64,000 nt of DNA from Eledone cirrhosa (Eukaryota), in assembly GCA_964016885.1 (NCBI GenBank), contig OZ024752.1, positions 13,888,001 to 13,952,000 of the forward strand, written 5' to 3'. The notes below the pieces were generated by a model. The model saw nothing but the letters and a program-made list of their open reading frames with translations. It searched no databases and was not told the DNA's origin. Of the stretch, positions 20,577-21,962 are shown in pieces. The position numbers were made by a program, and so were the translations under genes. Each line of letters begins with the position of its first letter. Positions within the stretch are counted from its first letter, which is position 1.

Positions 20577-21962
20577 ATATATATATATATATATATATAT
20601 ATATATATATATATATATATATATTTATATATATATATATATATATATATATATATATATATATATATATATATATATATATATTTATATATATATATAT
20701 ATATATATATATATATATATATATATATTTATATATATATATTTATATATATATATTTATATATATATATATTTATATATATATATATATATTTATATAT
20801 ATATATTTATATATATATATTTATATATATATATATTTATATATATATATATATATATATTTATATATATATATATATATTTATATATATATATATATAT
20901 TTATATATATATATATATATTTATATATATATATATATATATATTTATATATATATATATATATTTATATATATATATTTATATATATATGTTTATATAT
21001 ATATATATTTATATATATATATATATGGACACTACCGTAAACTCTTGGTAGATTTATCTACATATATATTTATATATATATTTATATATATTTATATATA
21101 TATATATATATATTTATATATATTTATATATATTTATATATATATATATATATATTTATATATATATTTATATATATTTATATATATTTATATATATATA
21201 TATATATATTTATATATATATATATATTTATATATATATATATTTATATATATATATATTTATATATATATATATTTATATATATATATATATATATTTA
21301 TATTTATATATATATATTTATATTTATATATATATATATTTATATATATATATATTTATATTTATATATATATATATTTATATTTATATTTATATATATA
21401 TATATTTATATATATATATATTTATATTTATATATATATATATTTATATTTATATTTATATATATATATATTTATATTTATATATATATATATTTATATA
21501 TATATTTATATTTATATATATTTATATTTATATTTATATATATTTATATATTTATATATATATATTTATATATATATATATATTTATATATATATATTTA
21601 TATATATATATTTACATATATATATTTATATATATATATATATTTATATATATATATATATATATTTATATATATATATTTATATATATATATTTATATA
21701 TATATATATATTTATATATATATATTTATATATATATATATATTTATATATATATATTTATATATATATATTTATATATATATATTTATATATATATATT
21801 TATATATATATATTTATATATATATATTTATATATAAATAGGACACTACCGTAAACTCTTGGTAGATTTATCTACATATATTTATATATATATATTTATA
21901 TTTATATATATATATTTATATATATATATATATATATATTTATATATATATATTTATATATA
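20577..21962. repeat. (TA)n array punctuated by TTTA, containing two 35-nt family A terminal tags
   Basis: Direct inspection. Tags are at 21027-21061 and 21841-21875. Confidence 0.95.

Follow-up and report, generated by a model that had tools for sequence, protein, structure and literature searches.

Isolated 35-nt tail ends of a putative Hydra-type Penelope-like element in a TA array of Eledone cirrhosa, possibly left by aborted insertions

Two isolated 35-nt sequences, here called tags, lie in one (TA)n array of the window, the whole 64-kb stretch of Eledone cirrhosa DNA that was analysed, and match the outer end of the tail of a Penelope-like element (PLE) with two inverted insertions nearby (family A; Table 1). 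The reading to which we give about an even chance is that the tags are aborted, 5'-truncated insertions in a probably pre-existing host TA array that nested PLEs had already divided. The literature describes very short insertions of PLEs into microsatellites, and the feature, real in the sequence, is mostly ordinary.

A pattern search for the 35-mer returned four matches in the window (shuffle mean 0.00; none of 100 shuffles reached four): the two tags, and one copy in each family A insertion. It bore out the original prediction that the tag is the exact reverse complement of 24084–24118 and differs by one mismatch from 13457–13491; the coordinates given there and the surroundings of TA and TTTA repeat only were also right, both tags falling within the same array. 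The full family A tail comprises 134 nt, of which the tags are the outer 35 nt, i.e., the outer quarter. The link to the element body that they lack, put earlier at about 100 nt, measures exactly 99 nt (13492–13590). It was also considered as a spliced intron, and rejected, since inspection by eye found no GT..AG pair on either strand that yields the tag boundary. The tag start is the exact long (outer) end of the element, with ATAT next to it, a feature that the two full-tail copies share. If the preceding T, which likewise matches the element, is counted in, tag 1 is 36 nt long; tag 2 has 35 nt, and the spacing between them is 814 nt. The CTACC/GGTAG hairpin ascribed to the tag does appear in the predicted minimum-energy fold, where it is weak (-2.7 kcal/mol as DNA, z -1.5, equalled by 19 of 200 shuffles). 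A short-word search that used the family A to D tails detected no other isolated tail stub in the window, and pattern scans gave 0 matches in metagenome contigs and 0 in viral contigs.

Table 1. Features of the window that bear on the tags.
Feature	Position	Strand	Remarks
Tag 1	21027–21061	+	0 mismatches; last 35 nt of family A tail (36 with preceding T)
Tag 2	21841–21875	+	0 mismatches; last 35 nt of family A tail
35-mer copy, long end of second family A insertion	24084–24118	-	0 mismatches; identical to tags
35-mer copy, left arm of first family A insertion	13457–13491	-	1 mismatch
(TA)n array holding both tags	20577–21962		TT interruptions on + strand
Left inverted arm, first family A insertion	13457–14970	-	Full 134-nt tail 13457–13590; long end
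Right arm, first family A insertion	19213–20576	+	Short end, without tail
5'-truncated PLE frame	14959–16689	+	RT from about motif 3, CxCx5C linker, C-terminal GIY-YIG-like region; Hydra-type
Hammerhead-like three-way fold	20369–20521	+	CUGAAGA core, long stem II, minimal stem III; ~64 nt upstream of short end
Second family A insertion, long end	24084–24354	-	Full tail 24084–24217; last 35 nt identical to tags
Second family A insertion, short-ended arm	24600–25051	+	Self-comparison
Seven inverted PLE insertions	9845–13414, 13457–20576, 23281–23828, 24084–25051, 26127–27443, 49066–50835, 51641–51930		Paired by eye

By self-comparison, the first family A insertion spans 13457–20576. The alignment of its arms has 1384 columns, with a single substitution and with gaps at 24 positions, which lie in TA runs, and the left arm extends 134 nt beyond the right one. 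The second insertion (24084–25051) has the same two ends as the first; all four family A ends abut (TA)n, and each insertion has one long and one short end. The frame of the first insertion consists of 576 codons, its start being cut off by the left arm, and has 102 relatives at E ≤ 0.001, one of which, labelled Octopus sinensis, is 44% identical. Aligned with full-length relatives, it runs from the RT core (YRDD) through the VY..YIG region and thus contains RT followed, at the C-terminus, by a GIY-YIG region. The residues C442, C444 and C450, C540, C543 and E546, and N559, C568 and H570 are invariant in all six aligned sequences, which gives the CxCx5C linker and the CxxC and CxH motifs beside conserved E and N that are characteristic of the Hydra clade (PMC8557442). 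No conserved cysteine pair of a CCHH motif was seen between VY and YIG in this six-sequence alignment, inspected by eye, as is also proper to that clade. Among the five aligned relatives, RWR or RWK occurs in three and DKT in four; the window copy is cut before both motifs. Pfam assigned no family to the frame at 14959–16689, and gave weak matches of RVT_1 to relative P0001 and of GIY-YIG to another window frame. Hydra-clade elements almost always insert into (TA)n (PMC8557442), and the (TA)n target, the inverted arm and the tail at one end agree with the clade here as well, with reads in agreement for the short end. The parent of the tags is thus a putative Hydra-type PLE, with TA as its target.

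The hammerhead-like fold upstream of the short end has z -6.7 against shuffled sequences (none of 200 shuffles as good), but its stem II closes unusually. It was missed by a hammerhead motif scan that did call families B and C, and among the best 150 of 177 Rfam matches between 9 and 31 kb there were only sub-threshold hairpin and microsatellite matches and no hammerhead family. One family B inverted insertion carries at its centre a near-perfect fold-back hairpin (23460–23665), followed by an 83-nt direct repeat. Another PLE type is represented by an endonuclease-region frame on the minus strand (26583–27410), bounded by TA arrays; it has a CX2-5CxxC finger, two paired cysteines within its GIY-YIG region and, judged by eye, a Neptune-like character. 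One more PLE frame of Hydra type, in two pieces, occupies 62486–64000 (minus strand).

The PLE tail described previously is 30–40 nt long and present at one end only (PMC8557442; PMC3846280), and what matches it in vitro is the stretch that separates two RT start sites (PMC11167929). In three other families of the window the tail extensions are ~87, ~90 and ~57 nt. Among the seven inverted insertions paired by eye, which represent four families, all seven have one tailed and one tail-less end, with the tailed end on the left in six; their tails, of ~57–134 nt, exceed the published length. The two-end pattern is the known PLE tail, and the tags are only its outer 35 nt.

Hydra-clade PLEs, including Hydra-1_Obim, a family of Octopus bimaculoides given in the supplement of Craig et al. 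(2021; PMC8557442), share with this element the same GIY-YIG-type C-terminus, the CxCx5C, CxxC and CxH motifs and the (TA)n target, and an inverted 5'-truncated arm and one-end tail are likewise common to both, according to the part of that account used here. The tail of 134 nt contrasts with the 30–40 nt given there, the region after the frame here is ~3.9 kb, and solo terminal stubs are unmentioned in that part of the paper. Two short motifs of the tag are absent from the supplement text. Poseidon of Anolis (Frangieh et al., 2024; PMC11167929), as described in the portion considered, is similar in having two fixed ends downstream of a hammerhead-like fold and AT-rich targets, and extends both strands in vitro; its optional tail is 30–40 nt, whereas here it is 134 nt with the 35-nt piece as its outer quarter, and next to the two start sites that bound its tail no third end at the tag boundary appears among the read ends listed for our element. 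A further parallel is Chlamys, a PLE that in Chlamydomonas mutation-accumulation lines produced new 5'-truncated microsatellite insertions with a median of 128 bp (PMC9977147), likewise short 3'-end-only insertions into a microsatellite target. Chlamys, however, belongs to another clade and targets (C)n, and a repeated identical boundary is unreported in the section of that paper used. An octopus repeat annotation counts active Penelope-like families, and the part of it available says nothing on stubs (PMC13282606). Searching by title and abstract start, within partial coverage of the literature, returned no paper on isolated PLE tail ends within TA arrays.

Four of the ten sequencing runs listed, one contig set plus three RAD runs, were aligned to 24070–24430 (1292, 4366, 4222 and 4320 records, respectively), and none of these records spans the tag locus. 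The short end was read into (AT)n in 287, 249 and 260 reads of the three RAD runs, which indicates that it is common across the family; contigs contain diverged long ends on (AT)n. Depth is flat across the tag boundary (1580 versus 1627, 1458 versus 1403 and 1746 versus 1731 in the bins on either side). Neither a molecule-end peak nor a depth step occurs at the boundary in the three RAD runs, whose sampling is biased, and no loose end falls there among those listed, the smallest of which had 121, 136 and 144 raw reads. With flat depth and no listed pile-up of ends, these reads do not indicate that a preferred 35-nt drop-off is common. The fixed 5' boundary that the original prediction proposed to look for was accordingly not seen in the read data, which are insensitive to it; all that follows is that solo tags make up no large class among these RAD reads. 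The recurrent inner end in the window lies 134 nt in, not 35, and the 3' boundary of the tags is the long end.

The repeats around the tags appear to belong to the host. The ten arrays between 9.7 and 30.2 kb (9752–30152) have 350 TT and 9 AA interruptions on the plus strand, and the eight arrays between 46 and 61 kb (46015–61155) have 626 TG and 28 CA. Family B adjoins TT-type arrays at 23.3–23.8 kb and TG-type arrays at 49–57 kb, and at minus-oriented ends the polarity of interruptions is the same as at plus-oriented ends (TT on the plus strand). A repeat templated in a telomerase-like manner would carry a signature of the element and flip with its orientation; neither is seen, and this reading is therefore unsupported. 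The type and strand of the interruptions go with the genomic region, contrary to what an RNA template of the enzyme would dictate. Probably, two ancestral host arrays were split by nested PLE insertions. The spacers between arrays from 13.4 to 30 kb are mostly pieces of mobile elements; those at 21963–22751 and 29790–29952 are without a match in the window. The two arrays that flank the family B insertion (22752–23280 and 23829–24083; insertion 23281–23828) have the run pattern 1-5-1-5-1 in common, perhaps as the decayed remains of a long target-site duplication. Another repeat family is found between TA arrays at 28385–28850 and 59860–60485, the latter copy with a hammerhead-like core on the minus strand (60088–60130). 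Other repeats of the window comprise a 37-nt minisatellite of ~63 copies (40398–42718) and many copies, some in tandem, of a ~190-nt SINE-like repeat (1442–8964 and 32039–45552).

For the aborted insertions, the following course can be proposed. The GIY-YIG nuclease of the element would nick the lower strand of the TA array, and the RT would begin at the outer start site, copy ~35 nt through the small hairpin and drop off before the longer predicted hairpin, after which the stub would be sealed to the TA repeat by host end-joining. Two such occurrences in the same array, from one break or from two attacks, would leave two different 5' junctions. The repeat between and around the stubs would be host microsatellite that grew by slippage and local duplication and was not templated by the element RNA. 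In the predicted RNA fold, the tag boundary falls in the short linker between the small terminal hairpin and the longer hairpin, ~7 nt from the latter, where the structure is modest and context-sensitive, the two tails giving z -1.4 and -2.5. This fold would fit drop-off, as weak evidence. A strong RT-blocking stem exactly at the boundary was also sought; none is predicted, pairing there being context-dependent. Between the tags and the tail of the adjacent insertion (13457) there is a one-base difference, and it speaks somewhat against a single RNA molecule as the template for both. This base, at position 13458, is G in the adjacent insertion and A in the tags and the 24084 copy (sense strand); as speculation, either the site mutated later, or the RT made an error there, or the template RNA underwent A-to-I editing. 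The identical boundary, within 1 nt, of two stubs in one array is the unexplained point of the aborted-insertion reading.

The array that holds both tags contains ~9% of the TA-array bases of the window, and unrelated insertions would rarely share array, strand and boundary within 1 nt, so that some link must join the tags: a break common to both, drop-off at a preferred place, or an old duplication whose traces have been scrambled. The last of these, in which a single inserted stub was subsequently copied together with a short stretch of the array, the intervening repeat then expanding and one junction being altered, accounts for the shared boundary, strand, sequence and array in one step and at no cost, and local duplications do exist in the arrays (8 runs at 66 nt spacing, 9 runs at 98 nt). 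The exact match of the flanks extends 0 nt on the 5' side and 6 nt on the 3' side, the repeats at the 5' junctions are in opposite phase, and the number of runs of at least four interruptions common to both flanks is zero; six-run flank patterns were matched as closely by 43% (3') and 23% (5') of 2415 random window pairs. Identical flanks, named in the original prediction as the mark of a simple duplication, are thus not what the comparison of interruption patterns gave. The sole AA interruption of the array 20577–21962 lies 3–4 nt upstream of tag 2, as an independent repair of that end would lead one to expect, with a rough, post hoc chance of ~2%. A palindrome at the same junction was discarded as evidence, any TT(TA)nAA being self-complementary. 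The flank mismatch and the junction differences favour separate formation of the junctions. Duplication would need a further change exactly at a junction to produce the opposite phase and the extra AA, and exact in-array duplications are mostly 14–98 nt apart (weaker four-run matches up to ~300 nt), compared with 814 nt between the tags. The earlier proposal of one micro-insertion duplicated with the array is weakened rather than eliminated by these differences in phase and flank pattern, and we regard it as unlikely, though with an appreciable share of the probability. Copying of the tags from DNA is far less probable: breaks in the TA array would have been repaired with 35 nt taken from a nearby long end, such as that at 24084, by template switching or microhomology-mediated end joining. 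The tags are identical to that copy, 2.2–3 kb away, TA repeats tend to break, and their repair by polymerase theta end joining, which leaves short templated duplications, is described for human cells in the part of PMC13645644 considered, but nothing in such repair fixes the stop at 35–36 nt twice, the donor flank pattern was not transferred past the pure AT run, and the tail is polymorphic with the reference letters common in reads, so that 24084 is not singled out as donor.

Athena-type PLEs lack an endonuclease and are telomeric. The array resembles what these elements and telomerase RT produce in that a related RT is involved and short copied pieces alternate with simple repeat, whereas the element here has an endonuclease domain and does not specify the repeat. 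The original prediction had combined abortive copying of the RNA 3' end with interleaved repeat synthesis in the manner of telomerase; abortive copying fits the data, and the interleaving does not, as the type and strand of interruptions follow the region and not the adjoining family or orientation. Reiteration, in which the RT copies the last 35 nt, adds repeat and restarts before moving to the inner start site, therefore seems very improbable. It would explain why the lower strand read from the right gives repeat, tag, repeat, tag, repeat and element body in one orientation, PLE and telomerase RTs share a most recent ancestor according to the part of PMC8557442 used, and DNA-templated slippage by the RT would evade the polarity test. 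Interruptions, however, track neither family nor orientation, with family B beside both TT and TG arrays, no other array of the window holds a tag, and the in vitro PLE study reports nicking and internal initiation, repeat addition being unmentioned in the portion available (PMC11167929). Only a small chance is likewise given to a single PLE protein–RNA complex working at one break through a 35-nt copy, release and extension by TA slippage, then through the same round once more, and only afterwards from the inner start site. An assembly or polishing artefact in the long low-complexity array is also improbable. Such arrays are hard to sequence, no aligned read spans the locus, and strand-locked interruptions over tens of kilobases could be read-error bias; against this, apart from TA-run lengths, one substitution separates the 1.38-kb inverted arms, indicating high local accuracy, the arrays contain compound duplications that are exact and in which different rare interruptions recur in the same sequence, and the two tag junctions differ.

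If the aborted-insertion reading holds, the tags are ordinary retroelement debris, and what they add to the little-known mechanism of PLEs is a possible early drop-off ~35 nt into reverse transcription, in a family with a 134-nt optional tail. Were the single-complex cycle true, the genome would preserve telomerase-like restart and repeat extension, the first product being a discrete 35-nt copy, and reiteration would amount to genomic evidence of telomerase-like restart by the closest retroelement relatives of telomerase. The pairing of one tailed with one tail-less end in seven inverted insertions is a clean pattern for work on the PLE mechanism.
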